From Desulfogranum marinum (GTDB lineage: Bacteria > Desulfobacterota > Desulfobulbia > Desulfobulbales > Desulfobulbaceae): a DNA stretch of 24,000 bases. Position 1 is the first letter of the stretch. The number at the start of each line of letters is the position of its first letter. This document shows positions 3,247 through 18,209 of this stretch, one piece after another. Location of the stretch: NCBI RefSeq assembly GCF_016918565.1, contig NZ_JAFFQD010000005.1, forward strand, positions 111,833 through 135,832, given 5' to 3'. Below the pieces are notes generated by a model. The model did no database searches and was not told the origin of the DNA. It saw only the letters and a list, made by a program, of their open reading frames with translations. The position numbers and the translations under genes are program-made.

Positions 3247-3492
3247 ATGAGTGCAAACATTGTCCTTGCCAACATGCAGGCAGGAATCACCTATCAAGTA
3301 ACAGGTTTTAATACCACGTCTGAGGACTATGCCACCAAGCTGTACAAAATGGGATTTGTCGAGGGGACTCCAGTGGAGCTTTCTTCGGTGAAAATAGCAG
3401 ACCCGATTGTGGTCCAGATCAGGGGCAGTAGAATCGCATTACGAAAAAAAGAAGCACGCCAGGTGCTCGTTCGGGAGTGCAACAATGCATAA
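3247..3492 (+). CDS. feoA: Ferrous iron transport protein A (FeoA)
   Basis: 81 aa with GGAG RBS. Small SH3-like FeoA pattern (ITYQVTGF...LYKMGFVEGTPVELSSV...PIVVQIRGSRIALRKKEARQVLV). Overlaps the feoB start by 8 nt. Confidence 0.85.
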   Translation: MSANIVLANMQAGITYQVTGFNTTSEDYATKLYKMGFVEGTPVELSSVKIADPIVVQIRGSRIALRKKEARQVLVRECNNA

Positions 3493-5623
3493 GATAGAAA
3501 GAATTGCTATTGCTGGTGTGCCTAATTGCGGCAAGACAACGCTTTTCAACAGCCTGACAGGTGCCCGGCAGAAGGTCGGCAACTGGCCTGGAGTTACGGT
3601 GGAAAAGATAGAAGGAACATTCCCGCTTCAGGAAAGTCGAGTGGAACTGGTAGATTTGCCGGGGACTTACAACCTCAGCCCGGACACTGAAGACCAGAAA
3701 GTAGCAGAGCGGGTTATTCGAGATGGTGAGTATGACTTGATTATCAATGTCGTGGATGCGACCAACCTGTCTCGTAACCTGTATTTAACCATGGACCTCA
3801 AAGAGCGAACCAACCAAATCATTGTCCTGCTCAACATGGTTGATGTTGCTGAGAATGAAGGTATTGAAATTGATATTGATCGGTTGAGCAAAGATCTCGG
3901 CCTGCCGGTTATTCCTGTTGTGGCAGTGGACAAGTCCTCCGTAAAAAAGGCAGTGGTTGCTATCGAACAGCGTGTCGCCGACCTGCCGGCCCATGATTCT
4001 CATGTGTCGACTAAAGAAGTCATGGATACGGTAAAAAAGTATGCCCACATCGACGCCATCTGTGGACGGGTTGCCCGTGAGAAGAAAGACCGCAGCGAAA
4101 ACCTTACCACCAGAATTGACAATGTTGTCATGAACCGTTTTGCTGCAATTCCGATCTTCCTTGCCTCAATGTTTGTCACGTTCTGGTTTGCCATAGGTCT
4201 TGGCTCTGTATTTATTGATTTCTTTGATATTATTGGCGGTTTGCTTTTTGTTGATATACCCGAAGCGCTTCTCTCTGCCGTTGGTAGCCCTGAATGGCTT
4301 ACGGTAGCCATTGCAGGCGGTATCGGGGCCGGGTGTCAAACCGTGGCAACCTTTATTCCTGTCGTTTTCTTCATGTTCCTGGCTCTTGCCATTCTGGAAG
4401 ATTTGGGATACATGGCCCGTGTTGGCGTTGTTGCAGACAAGTTTATGAGAAAAATCGGTTTGCCCGGCTCAGCTTTCATCCCCATGATAGTTGGTTTTGG
4501 TTGTACGGTTCCTGCCGTGATGGCGGCACGGACCCTTAGCAGCAAAAGAGACCGTTTTATGACCATATTCATGGCACCATTTATGTCCTGTGGTGCCCGC
4601 CTTCCTGTGTATGCTCTTTTCTGTGCAGCTCTCTTTGGTGCGTATTCTGGTTTAGCCGTGTTTCTGATTTACCTCAGTGGTCTCTTTATGGCCATCCTCA
4701 CTGGATTCTTTTTGAAAAATACGCTGTTCAAAGGAACGCCGTCCCATTTTGTGATGGATCTGCCTCTTTATCATGCCCCACGGGTAAGTGCGGTTTTCAA
4801 AAGTTCTTGGCTGCGTCTTAAGTCCTTTATCAAAAGAGCCGGTACTATTGTTGTAACAGCAGTTTTTGTCCTCAGTCTTTTCAATTCCATTGGCTATGAA
4901 AATGGTGAAATGAGCTTTGGTAATGAAGACTCGCAATCCTCGATACTCGCTCATGCTGGTAAAGCCATATCGCCAGTATTTGAACCCATGGGCATTACAA
5001 AAGATAACTGGCCTGCGTCGGTAGCTCTTTTTACCGGACTTTTTGCCAAAGAGGCCATTGTCGGTACCGTGAACGCACTCTATTCCTCAATGGACATGAA
5101 CCAAGCAACGGTAGCGGAAGTAGCTGAGGAGCCGGCTGAACTTGATATAGGCGGGACAATAACCGAAGCCTTTACCACCGTGGGTGAAGGATTAGTGGGT
5201 GTGATCAGTAGCGTAGATTTACTCGGCCTAGGATTGATAGCCGAAGACCAAGAAACGATTTCTGAAGAAATTGGAGCGAGCTCCTCTGTTTACAAGCATA
5301 TTGCAGCAAATTTCACCGTATTCTCTGCCTTTGCCTATTTGCTCTTTGTTCTCATGTATTTTCCTTGTCTTGCAGTTATCGGCGCAGCCCGTAAGGAAAT
5401 GGGAGGCTACTATGCAGCGGTAATGGCGATTTATGCCACCTTGCTGGCCTGGGCTGTGGCCACTTTCTTTTATCAGGTGACTGAAGGACATAATGTCGTC
5501 TATATTCTGCTCTCTTTGCTCACTTTGGTTGGCATTTATGGTTGGTTGTATCTACTGGGCAAGAAGGAGCAGGAAAAGACGCTGGCACTAGCTCCGTTGC
5601 CAATAATTAAAAATTGCTCTTAA
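3485..5623 (+). CDS. feoB: Ferrous iron transporter FeoB (N-terminal G-domain plus polytopic permease)
   Basis: 712 aa from ATG 3485 (MHKIERIAIAGVPNCGKTTLFNSLTG = G1; DLPGTY = G3; NMVD = G4), followed by a long multi-TM region. The ORF-track start at 3407 would overlap most of the feoA C-terminus and precede the G1 motif unnaturally. Confidence 0.95.
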   Translation: MHKIERIAIAGVPNCGKTTLFNSLTGARQKVGNWPGVTVEKIEGTFPLQESRVELVDLPGTYNLSPDTEDQKVAERVIRDGEYDLIINVVDATNLSRNLYLTMDLKERTNQIIVLLNMVDVAENEGIEIDIDRLSKDLGLPVIPVVAVDKSSVKKAVVAIEQRVADLPAHDSHVSTKEVMDTVKKYAHIDAICGRVAREKKDRSENLTTRIDNVVMNRFAAIPIFLASMFVTFWFAIGLGSVFIDFFDIIGGLLFVDIPEALLSAVGSPEWLTVAIAGGIGAGCQTVATFIPVVFFMFLALAILEDLGYMARVGVVADKFMRKIGLPGSAFIPMIVGFGCTVPAVMAARTLSSKRDRFMTIFMAPFMSCGARLPVYALFCAALFGAYSGLAVFLIYLSGLFMAILTGFFLKNTLFKGTPSHFVMDLPLYHAPRVSAVFKSSWLRLKSFIKRAGTIVVTAVFVLSLFNSIGYENGEMSFGNEDSQSSILAHAGKAISPVFEPMGITKDNWPASVALFTGLFAKEAIVGTVNALYSSMDMNQATVAEVAEEPAELDIGGTITEAFTTVGEGLVGVISSVDLLGLGLIAEDQETISEEIGASSSVYKHIAANFTVFSAFAYLLFVLMYFPCLAVIGAARKEMGGYYAAVMAIYATLLAWAVATFFYQVTEGHNVVYILLSLLTLVGIYGWLYLLGKKEQEKTLALAPLPIIKNCS

Positions 5624-5674
5624 GTTTCAGCCAGTAATGAAAGTCTGACGTTTCATTCTTTATGTAAACACTCA

Positions 5675-5711
5675 ATACAACCTTTCATTTTATCTGAATG
5701 GAAGGTTGTAT
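5675..5711 (+). terminator. Strong hairpin downstream of feoB (terminator-like, no canonical U-tract)
   Basis: 15-bp stem ATACAACCTTTCATT / AATGGAAGGTTGTAT (one U-G pair) with a 7-nt loop. A weaker hairpin lies at 5636-5657 (AATGAAA-N8-TTTCATT followed by CTTTAT). Neither has a clean T-run. Confidence 0.35.
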
Positions 5712-5859
5712 ACTGTGAATTTCCCGATTTTGGTCAGGGGCCGTGTCATCTTCTTCTCTTCCTTTCCTGTCGTAAAAACAACTGCTGACTTTCAGGGCAA
5801 TCCGTTTTACATTTCTATGCGTACATTTATTTATTGTTAATTTTTCATTGAGGCAGCCC

Positions 5860-8800
5860 ATGACTTCCCTTGGATCATCACCAGCCATTGAATCAGATGC
5901 GTTGAAAGCAAATCTCCAGGAAACAGCTGGTGAGGTGGAGATAAACCCGACGTATATGCCTCTCTATGAGATAATCAGTGGCTATAAAGGGCTGGCGACC
6001 AAAATCGAGACGCTGTTGTATGAAATCAGTCATCCTTACCGGAACTGGAAAATGCTTATTCCTGAGCTGCGGGCCTTTGCTCTAAAGAATTTACATCATT
6101 ACCGGAAGCATGAGCAGGGGCCGCAATCGTTTGCCTTGTTCACCAGTATATTTTTTGAGGCCCTGGAAGATTCCTATAAAAATGAGCAAATGGTCTCTCG
6201 GATCATTGAAGCGCTCCTTGCTTATGCCGATAAACTGGTGGCATCGTTGGGGCCGGAATCCCTGCCTCTGTATGAACAGGAACTCAATCTATTTTTTAAT
6301 AAGCTTCACCGTCTCGATGCAAACAGACCCGATATTATGATGTTTATTGTCCAGGGGCATCATCCGGTGCGTAAGATTGCCGAATGTGTTTTAAGCCTGT
6401 GGCAGGAGATGGAGGAGAAAGCTTTTCACCTTGGGGAACTGGCAATTTTGGTGCAGGTAATCCTCAAACGAAATTATGAATACTGGCTGAGCGAAGAGGA
6501 CCCGCTTCCCTGGTTTGAAGCCAGATGTGGCGAGTATTGCAAAAATTGGCATGCTGGGGATTACCTGGTGGCCATTTCCCACAAGCAGATACGGATCCAT
6601 CAGGAACGTTTGCAGCAGGTTGATATTGTCGATGATCCGGAAACGGGCTTGGTCACTATGGCTGGATTACCGAACCACATGGACATTGTTCGTCTTTACC
6701 GGAGCATCCCTTCCCATCTGGTTGCCGACCCGATAGATGAGCTTGAGGCCCATTTTATTGAGAACAGGAAGTTGCTGTTTCTTTTTCGGATTATGGAGAC
6801 AGACGGTTTGCGTCTCATTCATGAAGAAACACTGCGGGAGATCAATCGATCCCTGGTACAGCTTATTCGCAGCCAGAGTTTTGAAGAGATTGAACGTTTT
6901 TTTACCACTACCTTTCAGCTGCTCAAGGCAAATGTGCGTCGTTATCCCCATACCTCTCTGCAGTGTATTCAGGTGATCGGTAACGAAGTTTTTAAGCGGG
7001 GCAACTCAAGTCTGGTGGAGGCTTTTTTGTGGGAGGCTGTCCGGTTTGGATTTCAATATGCAAATGTTCGCGGCGTGGATGAGGATTGGCAACCCATTGC
7101 TAACCCCGCTCATTTAAGTAATATCAGGATCTGGCTCAATTTGATCCAACAGGAGCCCAAATGGTGTGCCACCCTGTTTTCCGCCCTGATTATTAATATT
7201 CGTATCAGTGGGGTCTGTGTAAAAGATACAGACCTGTTCCAGCGAGATATCACTGACCTGCTCAATCATCCCATTGAGCCGATCTACAATCTTGCCAAGC
7301 AGTTCACCAAGCTCATGCCCGTCTTCTTTAATGAAATAGGGGCAGAAGGCGAGTTGCGTGATGTCTCAACCGAGATCGATGAGATCCACAAACGTAAGGA
7401 TCTGCTTATCCATTTTTTGCGCAAACAGGCCCATGTGGAATCAAGTAATCTCATCGTAGGCTTTATCGAGGCAATATTTACCTTCTGGATCACGCTTGAT
7501 AAGACCTATTTAGAAGATTACCTGCCCATAGAGGTGCTGGAGCAGGTGGAAGAGAGCGGTTTGTTTGTTGATGATCAACATCGGCTGGCGCAGCGCATCA
7601 AAGAGCAACTTCGCTTTAGCAGGATGGAGCAGATACTGGACTGGGATGATAGTGACCGTCAGCAGTTCCTGGCAGCCCAAAACGATATAGCCAAGGATGA
7701 ACTGAAACGGTTTAACCTGCTGGTTAAAATGTATAAGTTGCTCCATCAGAAATATCATCTCAGCCTGCCGGAACTGCATCTGCAATTGCAGTATGCCATC
7801 CAAAATGGATTTCCGGAGCTGGAAAATTTGATGGATATCCTGGCAGAAGATGATCCTTTCCAGTGCCTTGATGCATTGTTGGGGCAGCTTGAACACCTGC
7901 GCCAGGTTATACTCAGCGAGGAGCGGTTTGAACCTAATGAAGAAATTTACTACAAACGGCATATTGCGGTCGATATCCCATCGGTATATGGACGTTACAG
8001 CGAACGTAAATTTGATTCCCTTGGTTTGACCTTTCGTCTGGAAAGTCTGGCTAATATTTATCTTGAGCGGTTGTTTGAAACCGTTAACCTCTCATTTATC
8101 ACCCAGGCAACCTTTATTCATATCCTGAAGTGTCTCCGTTTTTTTTCCAGAGCCCTGCAGATCGACGGTATCACCAGTAGACGGTTGGATACCTACAGCA
8201 ACCTGCTGGCGTCTTCCATTGGCATTAAACGGTTTTCTTACACCCAGCACCTCGACATCATGCGTGGTCTGTCCGAAGGGGTAAAAGATATTATATATGC
8301 CTATTATACCAACATTCATCAGAATAATTTGTCTATTGTGGTGCCTCAGGTAGGGCGGGAAAATTTGCTCGGCAAGTATTGTTCCCTTTGGGATGAGGAG
8401 AATATTCCGGAGACAGTCCTCCGGATATCCGAGTCTTTTTTTAGGGAACTGATTTCCACTGCCTTTGGATTGCAGCATCTGGATAATTTTATCGGCAAGA
8501 TTATCCAGACCCTGGAAGCCCAAAAAGACATTCTTGACGAGGATACCCTTGATCTGTTGATGTCGTATAATCCAGAGAAGGCGATCAGTGCGCTTCACGA
8601 CGAAAACATGCGCACCCACAACCTTATTCATCTTGGCAATAAGGGATTTAACCTGGTGGTTATGGCACGGGATGAAAAACCAGTGCCGCCGGCCTTTATT
8701 ATTACCACTGAAATTTTTCGTTGCTACGAAGCGGTGCGTAAGTTTGACCGTGCCAGGGATGAGTTCATGCAACGGGTTCGTGGTTCGATCACGGAAATTG

Positions 8801-10116
8801 AAAAATTGACTGGGACCGTGTTTGGTGGTGTGGATCGGCCACTGCTGCTTTCTGTTCGATCCGGTTCGGCCATGTCCATGCCTGGCATGATGACTACCAT
8901 CCATAATGTGGGCACCAACGAGGAGCTGGTGGAGGAATTCGTCGCTCTGCATCCGGATTCGGCTGCTTTTGCCTGGGATAATTATCGTCGGTTTTTGCAG
9001 TCCTGGGGTATGTCTCACGGAATGGACCGGGAAGATTTTCAGGAGTTGATGAATGAGCAAAAAGAGCGGCAGAATGTCCGCTTGAAAAAAGATTTTTCTC
9101 CAGAGGCGATGCATGAGCTGGCACTGAGCTATCAGCAGGCGATCCGCAACCGGGGATATGGGATGCCGGAAGATCCCTGGCTGCAGCTTATCGGTGCGGT
9201 TGAAGTGGTACTGGATTCATGGAATGCTCATAAGGCAAAGGAATATCGGCGGTTAATGGATGTTTCAGACGACTGGGGAACAGCGGTGATTGTCCAGGCC
9301 ATGGTGTATGGTAACATTAGCCCCCAGGCCGGCAGTGGGGTGTTGTTTACCGCCCACCCTTACCGCAAGGTTCGTCGGGTTGCTCTTTGGGGAGATTATG
9401 CCCCTGGTGATCAGGGGGAGGATATTGTGTCCGGTTTGGTGACAAGTTATCCGGTTTCGGTTGAACAAGCTGAGCTTGATGGTCGTGATGAACGAAACAG
9501 CCTGGAATTGAGGTTTCCTGAAATTTATAACAGGTTGCGTGATATCAGCCGTGAACTGGTATACGAGAAGGGATGGAATCCCCAGGAGATTGAATTCACC
9601 TTTGAGGGGCCGGAACCGGAAAAACTCTATATCCTCCAGACCAGGGATATGATCACAATCAAGAAAAAAGAGCACCTTAACGTGTTTGTTGATAGCGATC
9701 TTGCCCATAATAACATTCTTACCAAGGGGATAGGTGTCTCCGGGTCAGCCATGTCGGGACGGGCAGTGTTTACCGAGGAGAACATTAAACAGTTACGCCA
9801 GGAAGAGGATGCCGGAGACCTTATTCTCCTTCGTCAGGATACTGTTCCGGAAGATATCCGGGAAATTTCCATGGTCGACGGGCTGATTACTTCCAGAGGG
9901 GGCCAGACATCTCATGCCTCCGTGGTGGCCACCCGGTTGGAAAAAACCTGTGTGGTTGGTTGTCGCGATATGGCGGTGTACGAAGCTGAGGAATATGCGG
10001 AAGTAAACGGATGTAGGATTAATTTTGGGGACCCTGTCTCCATTGATGGACGCCATGGTTTGTTGATAAAAGGCAATTATCCCTTGCAGGAAGAGATACA
10101 TATTCTGCCCTTGTAA
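5860..10116 (+). CDS. Large PPDK-related protein: ~915-aa uncharacterised N-terminal region plus PPDK-type nucleotide-binding (ATP-grasp) domain plus PEP-utilising-enzyme mobile phosphohistidine domain; no PEP/pyruvate-binding TIM barrel
   Basis: 1418 aa from ATG 5860 (GAGG 6 nt upstream; the TTG at 5848 is less likely). From about residue 920 it is colinear with pyruvate phosphate dikinase: [105 protein letters not shown] (His codon 9913-9915). The ORF ends about 65 aa after the catalytic His. Confidence 0.85.
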
Positions 10117-10171
10117 TGTGAAGAGGGGAGAAGCTGTGAAAAGCAGTTATTTGGTGGACAAAGGATATAAG

Positions 10172-13084
10172 ATGATACATGCAGCAGGGAATTCGCCCTA
10201 TGTAATAACGGTTACCGACATGACCTGTGAGCATTGTGAAAAAAGGGTACATGATATTATCAGTGCGGTGGAAGGGGTCTGTAAAGTTGAGGTCGATCTT
10301 GCCGGCGGCAAAGTAACTGTTACCGGAGGGGTAGAGCAGGACGTCGTGGCAGCTGTAAAGGAAGGAGGCTACCAGGCCTCTTCCCTGGAGAGCGATCCGG
10401 GGGGCGTGCAACAGGTGGTTAAAGGAGCTGGTAGACAAGGACGTGATAGTTTTATGGTGCATGTCGCTGACATGAGCTGTTCCAGCTGCGTGCATGCTGT
10501 AGAGAAAGCAGCGTTGAGTACGGATGGTGTGGTCAAAGCCGAGGCTGATCTGCTTGCCAAAAACGTTTTGGTAGCAGGAGGCAATCCGGATGCTGTGATT
10601 GCAGCCATTCGTGACCGTGGTTATCAGGCTGAGGCAGTGCCCAGGAAAAAGAGCGTGTCCGGTGAGGGGGAATACTGGCTTTCTGTCCGTGATATGACCT
10701 GCTCAAGTTGCGTGCATAATGTTGAACAGGCAGCGCAAGCGGTGAGCGGAGTACAGAGTGCCCAAGTGAGCCTGCTGGAAAAGAAGGTAAGGGTTGTTGG
10801 CGGTGATCCGGCAGCGGTGGTCGCAGCCATTATAGAGCATGGGTATGATGCATCCTTGCCCGAAGGAGCACCGACTGCCGGGAGTTTTATTATCCGTTTT
10901 ACCAACAGGCTCGGTGAACAGGAAAAAAGTAAGATCCGGGAAATTATCCAAAGAGAAGACGGTGAGGCTGATCTGCAGATGTTCGCCGACCACTTTTTGG
11001 TTACCACAACTGCTCATCCTGCAGACGTTTTCTTTGCGCTGAACGATGCGGGCCTTGCCGGTGTTATGGAAGAGACCTATGTCGATCCTCACTTGCAACA
11101 GGCTGCGGAAAGTCGAAAAGAGATTGTTCGTTCATGGCAGCGAGCTGTAGTCGCGGCTGGGGTGGGGGCTGTAATTATGGTTGGGCATATGGGCGGTTTT
11201 TTCCCTGCTGTACAGGACAATCAGTGGTTCTGGGGCGGTATCGCTTTGCTTTGTCTCTTCACCATGTGGTTCAGCGGTCGCACCTATTATGTAACAGCCT
11301 GGAAAATGGCCCGCCATTTTTCTTCCAATATGGATACCCTGGTAGCCCTGGGAACAGCTGCTGCATGGAGTGCGTCGGTACTGGTCATCATTAATCCTGA
11401 TTTTTTACCGGGGCAGGCCAGCCACCTCTACCTGGATGCCTCGGTGATGATTCTGGCCTTTTTACAACTGGGGCATGGTTTGGAGGTAAGGGCCAAAAGA
11501 AAAACCAGTGAAGCTATCGGTTCCCTGGTGGGGTTGCAGGCCAAGACAGGGCACCTGCAACGGTCGGAAAGGACGGTTGATGTACCTGCTTCCCTCATTC
11601 GGCCGGATGACTTACTTCGGGTAAGGCCTGGTGAAAAGATACCCACCGATGGTGTGATAGAGGAAGGCGGGTCAACGGTTGATGAGTCTATGCTTACCGG
11701 TGAGCCGCTGGCAGTGAAAAAAAATGTCGGGGACAGTGTAACCGGCGGGACCATCAACCGGGCAGGTACTTTTCTTTTCCGGGTAACAAAAAACAGCGAT
11801 GAGACTGCTCTTTCCCAGATTATCAGCATGGTAAAAGCGGCACAGCTTTCCAAACCGCCCATCGGGAGACTGGTCGATAAGGTGGCTGCCGTTTTTGTAC
11901 CTTGTGTAATTGCTATTGCCATTGTGACTTTCGGCATCTGGTACCTGGTGGGTCCGGAACCGAGTCCGGCCTTTGCCTTGACAGCAGGTATCGCCGTACT
12001 GGTTATCGCCTGTCCCTGTTCTCTTGGCCTGGCCACCCCTATTGCGATCATGGTGGGCATGAGCAGGGCTGCTGAATGTAATGTGTTAATCAGAAACTCT
12101 GAAGCACTGCAGACCGCCTCCTCTTTGACCCATATTGTTGTCGATAAAACCGGTACCCTCACCAGGGGCAAACCAACTGTGACTCGGGTGGTCTCAGCGG
12201 GATCGGCCACAGAAGAGGAAATTTTACAGTTGGCGGCTAGTCTTGAGATACACTCCGAGCACCCCCTGGCCGAGGCAGTACTGGATGCATCTGCCGGTAA
12301 AAAAGTAATTCCTGATAGGTTGACTGATTTTACAGCCGTGGCTGGTCGGGGGGTAAAAGCGCGCAATAAAGAAGAATGGGTGTACCTTGGAAACCATCAT
12401 CTGATGGCAGAACAAGGGGCCGCTCTTGATCCGCAATTACGCACTATTGCCAATGAAGAAGCTACCCTTGGCGGCACACCGATTTGGCTTGGACAAGGGC
12501 AAACAGTAGTGGGGTTACTTATTTTAAAAGATCCATTGCGCAAAGATTCGATTGAGGCCGTCAGCCAGCTGCAACATCGTGGCATTCAAGTGGTGATGTG
12601 TACCGGGGATAACCGGAAAACAGCAGACGCAGTGGCTGAACAGCTTGGCATTTCCATGGTGCACAGTGAAGTGCTGCCCCAGGAAAAGCAGGATGTCGTC
12701 AAGACGCTGCAGGATCAGGGGGCATTGGTCGGTATGGTCGGTGACGGGGTCAACGATGCTCCGGCGCTTGCCCAGGCAGATACAGGGTTTGCCATCGGCA
12801 GCGGCACCGACGTGGCCATAGAAAATGCTGATATCACCCTGACCGGTGATTCCCTGCAACACGTTGCCGCCGCTGTTGCCATATCGCGTGCTACTTTGCG
12901 CAACATAAAGCAAAATCTCTTTGGAGCCTTTGTCTATAACGCGCTCGGTATTCCACTGGCTGCCGGGCTCTTTTTTCCTTTCACAGGCTGGCTGCTGGAG
13001 CCCATGTTTGCCAGTGCTGCCATGGCCTTGTCTTCGGTCACTGTTGTTACCAACGCTAACCGGCTTCGCTTTTTTAAACCATAA
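10172..13084 (+). CDS. copA: Copper-translocating P1B-type ATPase with three N-terminal CxxC heavy-metal-associated domains
   Basis: 970 aa from ATG 10172 (AAGGA 6 nt upstream; alternative in-frame GTG 10136 after GAGGGGAG, or GTG 10118). HMA motifs MTCEHC, MSCSSC, MTCSSC. TM CPC motif ([13 protein letters not shown]). [27 protein letters not shown]. Confidence 0.9.
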
Positions 13085-13096
13085 TAAGACGTCCAT

Positions 13097-13954
13097 ATGC
13101 ACACGCTTTACGAACGGATCACCTATCTCTTTGATCCACTGCATGCCTTTTATGAACACGAGAATCTTCACCGTAAACTTTCGACGGTTCTCGTGTTCCT
13201 TTTTTTGGTCAGTCTGCTGGTTATTGAATTGAACCGGAGACATTTTTTACCGGTTCCACTGGCAGGAATGCTTCCTGCCAACCACTTTTATGCAGTGCAG
13301 ATGGCTTTTTCCATTATCCTTGTATTGGAGGTGATCAGCCTGATTTTTGTTCTGCCCTGTTCTTTTTCCAGGTCGCTTGGCAAACAGTTTGAGATACTCT
13401 CCCTTATTCTGATCCGTAATGCCTTTAAAGAGCTTTCTTACTTTCCCGAACCAATCACCTATCTGGGAAATGAGGAAAAAATTCTCCATATTCTTTCCAA
13501 TGGATTTGGCGCCCTGCTTATTTTCGCCTTGCTGGGAGTGTATTACAAGATTCAGGTCCGGGCAGAGGAACAAAGTAAGCCCATGGATATTTTAGGTTTT
13601 GTGGCAGCTAAAAAAGGAATTTCCCTGCTGTTGCTGGCTGCATTTGTTATTATGGGAGGGTATTCCGTTGTACAGAACAGCGTAGGGGAGGGGCATGTAG
13701 ATTTCTTTCACGATTTTTATACCCTGCTCATCCTTACCGATATTCTTATCGTTCTTATTTCCCAGTGTTTTCATCCGTCCGCCAAGTTTGTGTTTCGCAA
13801 TTCCGGTTATGCGCTGTCAACCCTGATGATCCGTATTGCCTTGGTGGCACCGGTATATTTTAATGTGTTACTTGGCGGTGCGGCCATTGGTTTTGCGATT
13901 CTTCTTTCTCTGATCAGTAATCATCTCTTTCCTGAAACAGTACACAGGGGATAG
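13097..13954 (+). CDS. Polytopic inner-membrane protein of unknown function (at least six hydrophobic segments)
   Basis: 285 aa starting 12 nt after the copA stop. Hydrophobic helices include LSTVLVFLFLVSLLVIEL, FYAVQMAFSIILVLEVISLIFVL, FGALLIFALLGVYY, ISLLLLAAFVIMGGY, YTLLILTDILIVLISQCF, AAIGFAILLSLI. I could not recognise any family motif. Confidence 0.65.
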   Translation: MHTLYERITYLFDPLHAFYEHENLHRKLSTVLVFLFLVSLLVIELNRRHFLPVPLAGMLPANHFYAVQMAFSIILVLEVISLIFVLPCSFSRSLGKQFEILSLILIRNAFKELSYFPEPITYLGNEEKILHILSNGFGALLIFALLGVYYKIQVRAEEQSKPMDILGFVAAKKGISLLLLAAFVIMGGYSVVQNSVGEGHVDFFHDFYTLLILTDILIVLISQCFHPSAKFVFRNSGYALSTLMIRIALVAPVYFNVLLGGAAIGFAILLSLISNHLFPETVHRG

Positions 13955-14145: not shown

Positions 14146-16908
14146 CTAGAGGTATCTGTCCGCTTGGTCTTCTTGCCCTTTGATGGGTTGTTTGGGAATT
14201 TTTTCGGCAGGTACTGGTGTTTGTCTTTCCACTGGGGCAGGTAATATCGGCTGCCAGTTGAGCCACTCTTCATTGAGGGTTGCTTCCAGTTTGAAATGGT
14301 CGCCATCTTGGGCAGGAATGCCTATGGATTCGTCATCAGGGGTTGCCAAAGAAATTCCGCCTTTGAGTAGGGCCTCAACCGATTCCGTGCTTATCTGCAG
14401 ACCGCTGAATACGCCACCGCTTACCTGCACTCCGCTGGAGTTCCAGAATTTTGTCCCCTTGTAGATAAGTTCTTCATATTGTGGGGTAATGTTGACCTGC
14501 ACCCAGACGGATTGACGGGTCGGTGACAGCGAAAAACCAGTGACCCGGCCAACCTGTATCTGCCTGTAGTGGACGGGACTGCCCTTGGACAGTGAGCCCA
14601 GGCGTGCTGTTTCAAGAACAATGTTCAAGCCCGGTAGTGTTTTGATCTTTTCAGGCGGAGCATTGAGGACACGGAAAGTTGTTTGCAATGGACCCTTGCC
14701 CGCATGAACGGCAATATACGGACCAGAGAGCAGCGTATTAAGATTTTGAACACCTTGCAGGGTAATTGAAGGCTGAACAAGCCATACAGAGGATGTGCTT
14801 CGAAAAAATTTGACCGCATCTTGTTGAATGTGTGCTGTTGCGAGAATCCCTTTACCATCAGGTGAGATGTCGATAGAGGTGATGGTGCCGACTACAATTC
14901 CTTGATAGGTAATTTTGGTTTGCAGAGAAATCCCGGTGGCGTCGTTGAGGAAGAGCGTAATCTGCGTATCATCTGTATGTAAAGCAGCATGGTAGTTTTT
15001 ATACAGCTGAAATTGGTGGGAGTCAGTTACTGCTGCCCCCTCTCCCGGCGAGAAAAAAGTTATCCCGCCCGATATAACAGAGTCAATGGGGCCTGCCTGC
15101 ATATCAATTCCTTGCAAAGAGGCCCTGATCTGTATTCCTGAAAGATTATAGAACCTGGAGGTAGAAGTGACCAGATGAGCATATTTTTTATCGATAAGTA
15201 CATCTATCACGACCTCATCACTCTCTGGTTGCGGGGTGAACTTGAGTGATTTGCCAACTTTTATATTGTTATACAGAACAGGTGAACCAACAGAGAGCGG
15301 TGGCATTTCGGCAGTGGAGATCTTGAGGTGCAGGCCGGGAGGCTCTAAAAAAGGATTGGCTTGAACTGCCTCGCTAAAATCATCATACAGTGGAAAACTG
15401 TGGTTTTGGTCAGGAATAACTGCCTGCTGCCCCTCAGGCACGGGCGGAGATATAAAGGCGATGCCACCGGCGAGCATTGTTTGTAAGGAGGCAAGGTTAA
15501 CCTTAAAGTGAGAAAGGCTCCCGCCGATCTGCACTCCCGATACATTCCAGAAAATGGTTTTGGCATGGATGAGCTTGTCATAAGGTTTATAAAGCATGAG
15601 ACTGATCTGTACGCCTTTGTTTTTCGGCGACAGGGTAATGTCTAGAATTTCTCCGACTTTGAGTTGCTTGAAAAGAACCGGGGCCCCTCTCTCAAGCGAA
15701 CCGCTGTCAGATGCTTCCAGCCGAAATGTCGTTCCCTCGCGCATAACCTGATTGGGCATGGGATCAGGTTCTTCTTTGAAGTCGTTTAAGTATTCACCCT
15801 TACCAACCCTGAAGGTGATAAAATTTCCTCCCACCAAGGTCTCTATGTTGCGTATCCCCGTGATACTCACCTCCGGTTTTATAACCCAGAATTTGGTTGT
15901 TTCCCGCAAAATAGGTTCAGCCCTGGGGTCGAGAAGGATGTGAGCGGTGACCGTATGGAAAGAATCATGATTAAAGGTGAGACCTTTCACCACCCCAACC
16001 TTTAACCCCCTGTATCGTACTTCTGTTTTACCGGGAGCGATACCGTCGCCTGAGTTAAGCTGCAGGGTCATTGGTATACCGTATTCTGCAGATTCAAAAT
16101 CCTTGTAGAGGATGAAATGGCTGTTTGTTGCAGCAGGGCTGGTTGTTTGTAGAGAATCATGGGTGGCGCATGTTATGCCGCCGTAAAGGAGCGATGCCAT
16201 TGATTCTATGTTGACAGTCAGCCCCTGACGCAGATTACCGGTTAAAGAGAGGCCTGATGCGTTCCAGAAGCGAGTACCATTTTTTATGAGATGGGCAAAT
16301 TGGGGCTGTACATAGGCACTGAATAGGATTTTGCCGTTATCCTGCAATGCATAGTCTTCTATCTGACCGATTTGTAGGTTTTTTGTGTAAATATGGGATC
16401 CCCGCTGCAGCGAGTACAGGGTATCCGATTCCAGGGTAAAGCGTAGTCCTGGAGTGGCTTGGTCAAGTGGAGGCGGGACTTCGAGACCCTGGAAATGGGT
16501 TGTTGTTTCCGTTGATTTTCCCTTTTGGGTGCCGATATAAGAACCGCTTACGAGTGTTTCAATGCCGCTGATACGACCGGCAGAGACTTCGGCTTTGACA
16601 ATCCAGAAGGCCGTATCCTTTACGAGGAGAGCATCTGAGCGGTTCTCCATTTCAATGATCAGATTGACGCCCTGCATATCGTCGTCAATCTCTATCTTTT
16701 TTACTGTTCCAATGGGAATACCCTTGAAGATAACTTTTGTCTTTCCTGGAGTGATGCCTTCCGCATTTTCAAAATGAACATGGATGTCAATTCCGGCGTC
16801 ACGGAAACTGGTATATAGCAGCCAGCTGCCGATGCAGAGTGCTACAAAAGGAAGAATCCATATGGGGGAAAGGATGCGTTTATGACGTTGTATGGGGTCC
16901 TGTATCAT
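14146..16908 (-). CDS. letB: Seven-MCE-domain envelope-spanning lipid transport protein, LetB/YebT-like (PqiB/MlaD family)
   Basis: 920 aa with N-terminal TM (ILSPIWILPFVALCIGSWLLYTSF). Seven reiterations of the MCE pattern (e.g. GITPGKTKVIFKGIPIGTVKKIEI; LQRGSHIYTKNLQIGQIEDYAL; IAPGKTEVRYRGLKVGVVKGLTF; LERGAPVLFKQLKVGEILDITL; LSVGSPVLYNNIKVGKSLKFT; LQTKITYQGIVVGTITSIDI; LSKGSPVHYRQIQVGRVTGFSL), each followed by FW..SG. GAGG RBS; sits 8 nt downstream of the pqiA-like gene. The symbol is assigned by architecture, not orthology. Confidence 0.8.
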   Translation of the reverse strand: MIQDPIQRHKRILSPIWILPFVALCIGSWLLYTSFRDAGIDIHVHFENAEGITPGKTKVIFKGIPIGTVKKIEIDDDMQGVNLIIEMENRSDALLVKDTAFWIVKAEVSAGRISGIETLVSGSYIGTQKGKSTETTTHFQGLEVPPPLDQATPGLRFTLESDTLYSLQRGSHIYTKNLQIGQIEDYALQDNGKILFSAYVQPQFAHLIKNGTRFWNASGLSLTGNLRQGLTVNIESMASLLYGGITCATHDSLQTTSPAATNSHFILYKDFESAEYGIPMTLQLNSGDGIAPGKTEVRYRGLKVGVVKGLTFNHDSFHTVTAHILLDPRAEPILRETTKFWVIKPEVSITGIRNIETLVGGNFITFRVGKGEYLNDFKEEPDPMPNQVMREGTTFRLEASDSGSLERGAPVLFKQLKVGEILDITLSPKNKGVQISLMLYKPYDKLIHAKTIFWNVSGVQIGGSLSHFKVNLASLQTMLAGGIAFISPPVPEGQQAVIPDQNHSFPLYDDFSEAVQANPFLEPPGLHLKISTAEMPPLSVGSPVLYNNIKVGKSLKFTPQPESDEVVIDVLIDKKYAHLVTSTSRFYNLSGIQIRASLQGIDMQAGPIDSVISGGITFFSPGEGAAVTDSHQFQLYKNYHAALHTDDTQITLFLNDATGISLQTKITYQGIVVGTITSIDISPDGKGILATAHIQQDAVKFFRSTSSVWLVQPSITLQGVQNLNTLLSGPYIAVHAGKGPLQTTFRVLNAPPEKIKTLPGLNIVLETARLGSLSKGSPVHYRQIQVGRVTGFSLSPTRQSVWVQVNITPQYEELIYKGTKFWNSSGVQVSGGVFSGLQISTESVEALLKGGISLATPDDESIGIPAQDGDHFKLEATLNEEWLNWQPILPAPVERQTPVPAEKIPKQPIKGQEDQADRYL

Positions 16909-16916
16909 TGATTACC

Positions 16917-18209
16917 TCAGGAAGTAGACTCACAATTGTCCCAGAGCAGTCGTGTATCAAAGGTGACGGCAGCAAGCATGGTGGAAACAACAACACATGT
17001 AAAATAGAAGGCAGCCGGAGCGGTGGAAATGGTTGAAAGAAAACCGAATTGTACCAGGGTGCAGAGTAAGGCGATGACAAAAATATCAAGCATGGACCAA
17101 CGACCGATGAATTCAATTAATCGAAACATGGTGGTTTTTCGGCGTAGTCCTGTGTGCCATTGAAAATGGATGGAAAGGAGAATAATACTCAGGCCGATTA
17201 TTTTAAAGAGGGGAACCAGGATTGAGGCCGTTAAGATAATAATCCCGATGCCATAGGAGCCGTCTTGGAAAAAATAAACAATACCATCCAAAATGGTTGA
17301 ACGTTCGGGGACACCAAAGTATTCGACCTCCATGATGGGGAGTATATTGGCCGGAAAGGTGAAAAGAACAGCTGTGCAGAGGAGAGCCCAGGTACGCATA
17401 ATGCTGTTCTTTTTTCGATGGTGGAGTTTTTCTCCGCATCGAGGGCACTTTGAGTGAGATGGTGTATTCTCGTTGTCTGACCACACTATTTTATGACAGG
17501 TATGGCAGACAAGATGGCTTGCTCCACGGCTGTTGGATCCGGGTGATGTTAGGGGGTCCGGCGGGGATGGGCTCGTTTTGGCGCAGGTCGGTTCCAGTAA
17601 TGACCAGAAGAGTTTTCTGTCGCTGGCTGTTTGGGAAGCAATGGTAACAACAACAAGAAAGACAAAACAGAAAAAGCCTAGATTGAGATTGATTTCCGCA
17701 GAGTGGGCCATCTTGATGATTGTAATCAATATGCCGACCAGAAAAACATCGGTCATAGCCCATTCACGTAGATGGTTGTAGTGCCGAAACATCCATGGCA
17801 TCCATTTTTTTTGGTGATCCGTGAGAAGACCGAAAGAAACTACACAGAGACTTAACAGAGTGAAAAAAGGAAAAATAACGGCGGTCAAAAGAACGATGAA
17901 GCCCACAAAGAATTGCTGCTGAACAAACAGGCTGAAGATTGCATAGATGATGGACGAGGAGGACTCTGTACCGAGGATGCCCATGGTCAGCAAAGGGAGA
18001 AAGAGTGCGGGAATATAAAGCAGGAGCGCTGTCAGGCTAAGGGAAAAGGTTTTAACAATGGAATTGTGTTTATCCCTGTGGAGCAGTTCATTACATCTGG
18101 GGCACAGCGCAGCATGGTTTTCTCGTGCAGTCGTACCGCTAAGCAGCAGATCGCAGCTGGGGCACGCCGTTACGGTTGTATTGAGGGAGGGCTGAGTGGT
18201 TTTGTTCAC
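16917..18209 (-). CDS. letA: PqiA/LetA (YebS)-family integral membrane protein, duplicated module each preceded by a Cys4 zinc-ribbon motif
   Basis: 430 aa with GTG start. CPSCDLL..(N19)..CPRCNELL and CHTCHKIV..(N14)..CPRCGEKL, each followed by about 4 TM helices. Immediately upstream of the MCE gene, as in pqiAB/letAB. Confidence 0.8.
   Translation of the reverse strand: MNKTTQPSLNTTVTACPSCDLLLSGTTARENHAALCPRCNELLHRDKHNSIVKTFSLSLTALLLYIPALFLPLLTMGILGTESSSSIIYAIFSLFVQQQFFVGFIVLLTAVIFPFFTLLSLCVVSFGLLTDHQKKWMPWMFRHYNHLREWAMTDVFLVGILITIIKMAHSAEINLNLGFFCFVFLVVVTIASQTASDRKLFWSLLEPTCAKTSPSPPDPLTSPGSNSRGASHLVCHTCHKIVWSDNENTPSHSKCPRCGEKLHHRKKNSIMRTWALLCTAVLFTFPANILPIMEVEYFGVPERSTILDGIVYFFQDGSYGIGIIILTASILVPLFKIIGLSIILLSIHFQWHTGLRRKTTMFRLIEFIGRWSMLDIFVIALLCTLVQFGFLSTISTAPAAFYFTCVVVSTMLAAVTFDTRLLWDNCESTS

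Follow-up and report, generated by a model that had tools for sequence, protein, structure and literature searches.

Pyruvate phosphate dikinase (PPDK; EC 2.7.9.1), known structurally from the enzyme of C. symbiosum (1KBL and 1DIK), couples an ATP-grasp nucleotide-binding domain and a swivelling phosphohistidine (His) domain to a C-terminal TIM barrel for pyruvate or phosphoenolpyruvate (PEP). The PPDK-type nucleotide and phosphohistidine cassette is reused with a different acceptor module in the glucan dikinases GWD (alpha-glucan, water dikinase) and PWD; GWD carries carbohydrate-binding modules (CBMs) of the CBM45 or CBM20 type, and its His domain precedes the nucleotide domain. Rifampin phosphotransferase (RPH; PDB 5FBS and 5HV1) likewise combines an ATP-grasp domain and a C-terminal swivel His domain with a helical, non-TIM acceptor domain, which lies between the two. 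In Enzyme I of the PEP-dependent phosphotransferase system (PTS), the swivel His domain is charged from PEP at a TIM barrel, and an HPr-binding helical subdomain is inserted in its N-terminal part, EIN. Here, we describe a gene for a dikinase-like protein, which we call DIK, in a 24,000-nucleotide stretch of the Desulfogranum marinum genome (contig NZ_JAFFQD010000005.1, positions 111,833 to 135,832 of the forward strand; hereafter the window, within which all positions are numbered unless a related locus is named). An earlier note, made from the sequence of this window alone, had read the protein as an orphan half-dikinase with a novel acceptor module. The structural part of that reading proved right, while its contextual speculation proved wrong: DIK is one member of a family that is widespread and mis-annotated, has a new fold, and is strongly linked, in a way not remarked on before, to a special paralogue of glyceraldehyde 3-phosphate dehydrogenase (GAPDH) and to the gap-pgk-tpi operon. 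This family-wide linkage to GAPDH is the informative context that the note overlooked, and it is invisible in the window itself.

A PPDK-type cassette without a TIM barrel

The DIK gene lies on the forward strand at 5860-10116 (the reading frame is open from 5848) and encodes 1418 amino acids from the ATG at 5860; its closest homologues, such as the 95% identical P0001, also have 1418. The encoded protein comprises a helical N-terminal region, a PPDK-type ATP-grasp domain (residues ~916-1287; 8605-9720), delimited by the Pfam match to PPDK_N and by alignment with PPDK structures, and a swivel phosphohistidine domain (residues 1321-1400; 9820-10059), with no TIM barrel behind them. Pfam recognized PPDK_N (PF01326) at residues 925-1205 (E 2e-28) and the mobile PEP-utilizers domain (PF00391) at residues 1321-1400 (E 1.9e-16), and gave no match to the TIM barrel family PEP-utilizers_C (PF02896) anywhere in the protein. 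In a sequence search of the PDB, residues 916-1411 could be aligned colinearly with C. symbiosum PPDK (1KBL; 873 residues) over its residues 11-513 (E about 1e-72), and the swivel domain matched the isolated His domain of PPDK (2FM4). The ATP-grasp motifs are kept as LGNKGFNL (residues 925-932), a 14-residue motif (998-1011), YRRF (1042-1045), EIEFTFE (1243-1249) and LQTRD (1259-1263). The nucleotide-site motif set (33 residues together with LQTRD as a further motif) is intact, and alignment with PPDK structures shows that the conserved Lys, Arg, Glu and Gln motifs of the nucleotide site are retained. The catalytic histidine is His1352, in the TSH motif of an 11-residue stretch that begins at residue 1347, and its codon (CAT) lies at 9913-9915. 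The TAA stop codon (10114-10116) follows 66 residues further on. The earlier note had located the same domains, the same nucleotide motifs and the same His codon, and had counted about 65 residues to the stop; Pfam and the PPDK alignment agree with it throughout, and no TIM barrel is hidden beyond the stop. A promoter and terminator scan around the DIK gene gave matches no better than background.

Because the reading frame ends at the same point, 52-74 residues (median 66) past the catalytic residue, in all 156 related loci in which the C-terminus is covered, the absence of the TIM barrel is a trait of the family and not a sequencing error. Of 46 full-length representatives, 44 have the catalytic TSH, as do 155 of those 156 loci. 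We also considered a split PPDK with the TIM barrel encoded separately, and rejected it: tblastn detected no TIM-barrel gene in the flanks of any of 171 related loci, which is a soft negative, as the C-terminal C. symbiosum query was approximate.

Despite this likeness to PPDK, DIK falls outside each of the cassette-reusing dikinase families with which we compared it. Its best match among NCBIfam models is the PPDK model TIGR01828, yet it scores 357.3 bits against a cutoff of 843.45; it scores 72.5 bits against a cutoff of 739.75 for PEP synthase (PpsA; TIGR01418), from which it also differs in having no TIM barrel, and 34 bits against a cutoff of 999 for the rifamycin-inactivating phosphotransferases (NF041857). 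From PPDK it is further set apart by the extra 915 residues of helical N-terminus and by neighbours that encode GAPDH, pgk and tpiA. The similarity to RPH appears to be one of architecture, and a PDB profile search detects it only in the His domain (E about 5e-13) and in a short N-terminal stretch of the ATP-grasp domain; moreover, the ATP-grasp domain of DIK is of the PPDK type and not the PpsA type, and its helical domain lies N-terminal to both others. Unlike GWD, DIK carries no CBM and has a different domain order, and unlike Enzyme I, with which it shares a homologous swivel domain, it would be charged by ATP at the ATP-grasp domain. By analogy, then, DIK can be likened to those His-swivel dikinases that reuse the cassette (RPH, GWD/PWD, phenylphosphate synthase and PigC-type enzymes). 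Its sequence makes it a member of a large, uncharacterised, PPDK-derived family that has kept the ATP-grasp domain and the TSH histidine, lost the pyruvate/PEP TIM barrel and gained a helical N-terminus of ~900 residues. That the earlier note took it for an ATP-dependent dikinase with a non-canonical acceptor module was reasonable, given the intact cassette, the near-universal histidine and the missing barrel, and we consider it very likely that DIK is an active His-swivel dikinase with a new, non-TIM acceptor module.

A conserved helical N-terminal region without detectable relatives

Residues 1-915 (5860-8604) matched no Pfam family, either within the whole protein or as three sub-fragments at E<=10, and no NCBIfam model. 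For this region, neither the single protein nor the family profiles A1 and A2 found anything among PDB sequences beyond compositional matches to designed helical bundles and BAR domains. AlphaFold2 (AF2) nevertheless folded it with confidence, giving a mean predicted local distance difference test (pLDDT) of 87.2 and a predicted TM-score (pTM) of 0.79 for residues 1-920, and a pLDDT of 91.1 and a pTM of 0.88 for residues 380-915. The predicted fold consists of ~45 helices and a single beta-hairpin (strands 693-700 and 707-714), which bears a KRH...IPSxYG motif; the low AF2 confidence of loop 701-705 suggests that this loop may be flexible. Foldseek searches of the PDB with the model of residues 1-920 gave no match at E<=1e-3 (best E 3.6e-3, TM 0.12), and the model of residues 380-915 gave at best a match at E 0.18. 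The weak neighbours found were all helical-repeat scaffolds, with TM<=0.2. As modelled, the N-terminal region is therefore well folded and conserved, with no detectable relative, and the description of it in the earlier note as helix-rich and unassignable stands.

Conservation in this region is strongest in a core of residues ~396-735 (7045-8064; alignments A1, A2 and A4), as judged from alignments of 79-89 diverse members. Fifteen residues of the core are invariant: H418, D456, P487, G497, R500, D507, R521, K522, H525, K631, Y632, K699, H701, S708 and G711. They fall largely within short motifs, of which DTDLFQRD (residues 456-463; 7225-7248) is near-invariant family-wide; the others are an 18-residue motif (487-504; 7318-7371), which with the former accounts for 26 motif letters, HFLRKQxHVES (518-528; 7411-7443) and the 17-residue YxKRHIAxxIPSxYGxY (697-713; 7948-7998), which both the alignment and the AF2 model place on the sole beta-hairpin. 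With so many invariant His, Asp, Arg and Lys residues, the core looks like a place where a small anionic ligand or a metal would bind, a prediction from conservation, and we propose that the N-terminal region is an acceptor-binding or partner-binding module.

A widespread family annotated as PPDK or PEP synthase

When the 915 N-terminal residues were used as a query on their own, 1936 proteins were returned. The 120 best matches were nearly all full length (about 1412-1444 aa) and 64-95% identical to the query, came from Desulfobulbus, Desulfogranum, Desulfolithobacter and the cable bacteria Electrothrix and Electronema, and carry public names such as "PEP/pyruvate-binding domain-containing protein", "PEP synthase" and "PPDK". 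Searched exhaustively with HMMER, 1.84 billion cluster representatives (clusters at 50% identity) yielded 595 matches at E<=1e-3 and 208 at E<=1e-30, so that the "orphan" of the earlier note is nothing of the kind. With one genome scanned for each GTDB species, at least 592 species genomes proved to hold a relative. The layout of N-terminal region, PPDK_N and PEP-utilizers is held down to 27% identity in proteins of 1335-1433 aa, and the family as a whole spans ~1335-1540 aa. The window protein is colinear with the family over its full length and carries the core motifs that mark it (a 15-letter motif, HFLRKQxHxE and KRHxxxGIPSxYG). Besides Desulfobulbales, named members come from Desulfobacterium, unclassified Deltaproteobacteria and Thermodesulfobacteriota; the family also includes a large Bacteroidales/Lentimicrobiaceae clade, and one cluster is labelled with Thermoleophilia and Dehalococcoidia members. 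The named members are all annotated generically, as PPDK or PEP synthase. Our literature search found no account of the family, of a full-length homologue or of a phosphoglycerate dikinase. Neither a family match for the N-terminus, nor a described full-length homologue, nor an in-frame TIM barrel, any of which the earlier note had held would undo its reading, thus came to light.

Some distant members carry an additional N-terminal extension of ~140 residues: P0162 and P0314 (L090:7001-11623), P0167, P0150 and P0197. Pfam confirmed a hemerythrin domain in the extension of P0162, P0167 and P0314, while for P0150 and P0197 such a domain is presumed only from an N-terminal offset of like size. 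The P0162 lineage has a ferritin-like gene upstream.

Linkage to GAPDH genes across the family

Conserved gene context was sought in two sets of loci. In the first, we clustered the flanking ORFs of 80 Desulfobulbales loci. A gene for a normal-sized GAPDH (~336 aa; hereafter gapS) lies directly upstream of DIK on the same strand in 51 of them, at a median gap of 174 bp, and a GT5 glycogen/starch-synthase-like gene (glgA) precedes gapS, two genes upstream of DIK, in 41; farther out lie aroC and aroK. The common order in Desulfobulbales is thus glgA-gapS-DIK. The second set came from a metagenome scan seeded from a different clade, which yielded 80 further loci, 41 of them flanked on each side by 1.5 kb or more. 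In 37 of these 41, and in every clade of the family, a gene for a longer GAPDH paralogue (gapL) lies within 1.5 kb of DIK. Its orientation to DIK varies (same strand, convergent or divergent), and therefore selection appears to act on proximity, rather than an inherited gene order being retained.

Individual loci show how close this association can be. In L089, L091 and L174, gapL directly follows DIK, and in L089 (38% identity) the order is DIK-gapL-gapS-pgk-tpiA-secG, with a gapL of 415 aa. In a Thermoleophilia member (27% identity), a gene for a 420-aa GAPDH starts 37 bp past the DIK stop, and in one Bacteroidales locus a gap gene lies upstream and divergent. In the cultured Dissulfuribacter thermophilus, the genes follow one another as gapS-DIK-gapL-pgk-tpiA-secG, 0-16 bp apart, and hpf-ptsN-rapZ-EIIA(Man)-GNAT lies upstream of them. 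The DIK of this species, at 3765-7985 of locus L174 (GCA_001687335.1, contig MAGO01000011.1), shares 44% identity with the window protein over the full length. Genes other than those for GAPDH recur as well: tpiA, pgk and secG in 8-9 loci each, and an aldehyde dehydrogenase (ALDH) gene resembling GapN in 6. No neighbour cluster for enolase, pyruvate kinase or mutase reached 5 loci.

In Desulfobulbales, gapL (70-73% identical to the gapL query) is located elsewhere in the genome, in the order gapL-GNAT-pgk-tpiA-secG. For this reason, we conclude that the ancestral cluster has been split in this order between DIK and gapL; in the subclade of the window, DIK has been separated from gapS as well.

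Some further features of these neighbourhoods were recorded. The ALDH gene lies ~70 bp upstream of DIK in L121 (4780-6186) and in 5 other metagenome loci; its best NCBIfam match is the archaeal non-phosphorylating GAPDH (GapN), at 200 vs 780 bits and thus far below threshold. In L089 (1-6917) and L174 (1-2710), both of clade A, the operon directly follows a PTS-Ntr cluster, hpf-ptsN-rapZ-EIIA(Man), and a gene for a small GNAT acetyltransferase, with rpoN before it in L089. A GNAT gene also lies between gapL and pgk in the Desulfobulbales loci L172 and L173. We considered the GNAT acetyltransferase as a third member of the module and rejected it, as it occurs in only 4 loci.

The DIK-linked GAPDH paralogue gapL

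The gapL proteins form a coherent group of GAPDH paralogues of ~420 aa (~400-423) with shared insertions (for example L089:11342-12589, L091:11216-12478, L174:8001-9260 and L172:7001-8221), found in Thermodesulfobacteriota (Dissulfuribacter, Thermodesulfatator and Desulfobulbales) and in other phyla. They score 289-337 bits against TIGR01534, below its cutoff of 367, and have no family model of their own. In all 56 sequences analyzed, the catalytic Cys (SCTTT) and His176 are kept, as are both phosphate sites (T179, the R195 region, T208 and R231). The NAD-specifying Asp32, which stands in VNDL in gapS, is replaced in all 56 by N-x-G-R-[E/D]. NADP-using GAPDHs such as B. subtilis GapB, which are typically anabolic, have likewise lost the Asp and gained a basic residue, and by this analogy gapL probably accepts NADP(H).

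A proposed reaction in triose-phosphate metabolism

From its gene neighbourhoods, DIK would seem somewhat more apt than otherwise to function in triose-phosphate metabolism together with GAPDH. By homology with PPDK, ATP would (pyro)phosphorylate His1352 at the ATP-grasp site, with release of AMP and of pyrophosphate (PPi) or Pi. As the architecture suggests, the His domain, being tethered only by a single linker on its N-terminal side, would then swing to a second site, for which the conserved N-terminal core is the only candidate, and would pass its phosphate to an acceptor bound there. The gene context points to an acceptor within the segment of glyceraldehyde 3-phosphate (GAP), 1,3-bisphosphoglycerate (1,3-BPG) and 3-phosphoglycerate (3-PG).

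Within this segment, we tentatively put forward the interconversion of 3-PG and 1,3-BPG, because gene pairs for a carboxylate kinase and an acyl-phosphate reductase are common (pgk-gap, proB-proA, argB-argC and ask-asd), and DIK similarly adjoins a phosphorylating GAPDH-type reductase, in the same operon as pgk and tpiA. The reaction would be 3-PG + ATP (+ Pi) <-> 1,3-BPG + AMP + PPi (or Pi), after which gapL would reduce the acyl phosphate to glyceraldehyde 3-phosphate. Based on textbook hydrolysis energies, 3-PG + ATP + Pi -> 1,3-BPG + AMP + PPi comes to about +4 kJ/mol; for phosphoglycerate kinase (PGK) in the same direction the value is about +19 kJ/mol. The proposed reaction could therefore run either way, like that of PPDK. 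DIK is related to PGK in neither sequence nor fold, and a phosphohistidine, AMP-forming mechanism is proposed for it; the resemblance would be one of function and context only. Stated in full, the proposal is that DIK may be a phosphohistidine-dependent, AMP-forming (PPi-linked) 3-phosphoglycerate dikinase on a new fold, paired with a dedicated, probably NADP(H)-accepting GAPDH; in this specific form we regard it as possible but still doubtful. The broader combination of a dikinase, an N-terminal acceptor site and a triose-phosphate role, with 3-PG as the likeliest acceptor, is the best explanation that we can offer as a whole, and a fairly plausible one, though we fall short of expecting it to hold in every part.

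Several observations weigh against this explanation. The window contains no gap gene anywhere in its 24 kb, so that DIK has no GAPDH neighbour here, and in the P0138 clade gapL is convergent with DIK, which means that the two are not co-transcribed. PGK is encoded in the same operons, and DIK would thus provide a parallel route and not a replacement. In Desulfobulbales, gapL holds the usual gap slot of the gap-pgk-tpi operon and may simply be the housekeeping GAPDH there; the linkage itself may signify no more than a glycolytic operon. A pocket formed by the invariant N-terminal residues, within reach of His1352, is a prediction of the proposal. Finally, one hemerythrin-fused lineage (P0162) has a Tyr in place of the catalytic His (TSY, not TSH), which hints that the N-terminal region can serve a role without phosphotransfer; this lineage may be an O2- or iron-sensing variant that has lost phosphotransfer.

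Alternative explanations

The public names of the family would make DIK a PPDK or PEP synthase, if a non-canonical one, with the helical N-terminus as a replacement site for pyruvate or PEP. Its cassette is indeed far nearer to PPDK than to other dikinases, in the PDB alignment as in the NCBIfam ranking, and a glycolytic operon would be a suitable setting; however, the 357 bits against a cutoff of 843 and the missing PF02896 barrel speak against it, the neighbours GAPDH, pgk and tpiA belong to the wrong segment of the pathway, with no recurrent enolase, pyruvate kinase or mutase, and to swap a working TIM barrel for an unrelated 900-residue domain that does the same chemistry would be unparsimonious. 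We therefore think this unlikely. Similarly improbable, in our view, is a regulatory or protein-phosphorylating role driven by ATP, in which DIK would be the ATP-dependent counterpart of PTS Enzyme I and its N-terminus would dock a protein (GAPDH, PGK, PtsN or EIIA-Man, for example) that receives the phosphate of His1352. The swivel domain is homologous to that of Enzyme I (PtsI/PtsP), the operon directly follows ptsN, rapZ and EIIA(Man) genes in L089 and L174, and at least one lineage, that of the TSY variant, may have put the protein to sensory or regulatory use; yet these PTS genes adjoin in those two loci only and are absent from the recurrent neighbours. The N-terminus itself can be read both ways, since its only structural neighbours are helical-repeat scaffolds, which would favour docking, but at TM<=0.2 such matches are uninformative, and the dense invariant His, Asp, Arg and Lys motifs look more like a small-molecule or metal site than like a docking surface.

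The remaining explanations fare worse than the triose-phosphate role. A bacterial glucan (glycogen) dikinase, analogous to plant GWD, is suggested by the glgA gene two positions upstream in 41 of 80 Desulfobulbales loci, but this link is confined to Desulfobulbales and was not seen in 86 other loci, DIK has no carbohydrate-binding module (Pfam, E<=10), and its domain order is unlike that of GWD. The earlier note had raised the same idea from two CBM48-type domains near DIK; Pfam finds one, in the ORF at 668-1255, which follows an ORF for an extracytoplasmic function (ECF) sigma factor and is unrelated to DIK. A glucan substrate is accordingly quite improbable. A role in metal homeostasis could be read from the position of DIK in the window, between feoA-feoB (3247-5623) and copA (10118-13084), with a single base between the DIK stop and the first possible copA start (GTG, 10118), and from the hemerythrin domain of some distant members, one of which has the ferritin gene upstream. 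Across 84 related loci, however, copA lies downstream of DIK in only 10, all from the closest Desulfobulbus/Desulfogranum-type relatives; it is absent from the other 74, including Electrothrix and all more distant members, which have different neighbours, and feoB is conserved in none of the 84. In related genomes, the gap between DIK and copA is 85-250 bp. The adjacency to copA and feoB is therefore local synteny only, the copper or iron phenotype that the earlier note had thought worth looking for is not expected, and a metal role is very improbable indeed. The idea that DIK is a PPDK that was cut short or is decaying, whether as a pseudogene or through an assembly artefact, for which the end of the ORF at the very point where the barrel of PPDK would start might argue, is hardly credible: it is refuted by the common end point in all 156 covered loci, the full length is kept across phyla with invariant residues in both halves, and the nearest homologues are 95% identical and of the same length.

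Other genes in the window

At the start of the window, an ECF sigma factor ORF (183-668) is followed by the 195-aa ORF at 668-1255, which has a C-terminal AMPK1_CBM/CBM48 domain and may encode an anti-sigma factor with a carbohydrate-binding module, and by a 115-aa ORF with no family (all within 183-1599). A 335-aa ORF at 1729-2736, with no Pfam match, has a signal-peptide-like hydrophobic N-terminus and a low-complexity C-terminus rich in Gly, Ser and Asn (GSGGNSGG-type repeats). Downstream of DIK, the window CopA has three N-terminal HMA domains and 988 aa from its first possible start. Directly after copA lies a 285-aa ORF (13097-13954) with no Pfam or NCBIfam match; 6 related loci from 5 distinct places, all of them with copA, have a counterpart of 69-82% identity in this position, and the ORF may encode an unrecognised partner of the window CopA. 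On the reverse strand, at 14146-18209, a pqiA-like gene is followed by a gene for a 920-aa MCE protein with seven MlaD domains, a LetB/YebT-like layout and the NCBIfam name PqiB; this pair is kept beside copA in Desulfogranum (L001).

Implications for central metabolism

Metabolic reconstructions of Desulfobulbales, including the cable bacteria, that count DIK as a PPDK or PEP synthase are probably wrong. To our knowledge, the glycolytic trunk is regarded as fully catalogued, while the neighbourhoods of DIK point to an undescribed step in central sugar metabolism. As the cultured Dissulfuribacter thermophilus holds the complete gapS-DIK-gapL-pgk-tpiA operon, the question is directly testable. 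PPi-dependent variants, among them PPi-dependent phosphofructokinase and PPDK, are the main known means by which anaerobes shift the energy balance of glycolysis. If the phosphoglycerate dikinase proposal were true, DIK would catalyse a new central-metabolic reaction on a new fold, and would offer energy-limited anaerobes a PPDK-style alternative to phosphoglycerate kinase.

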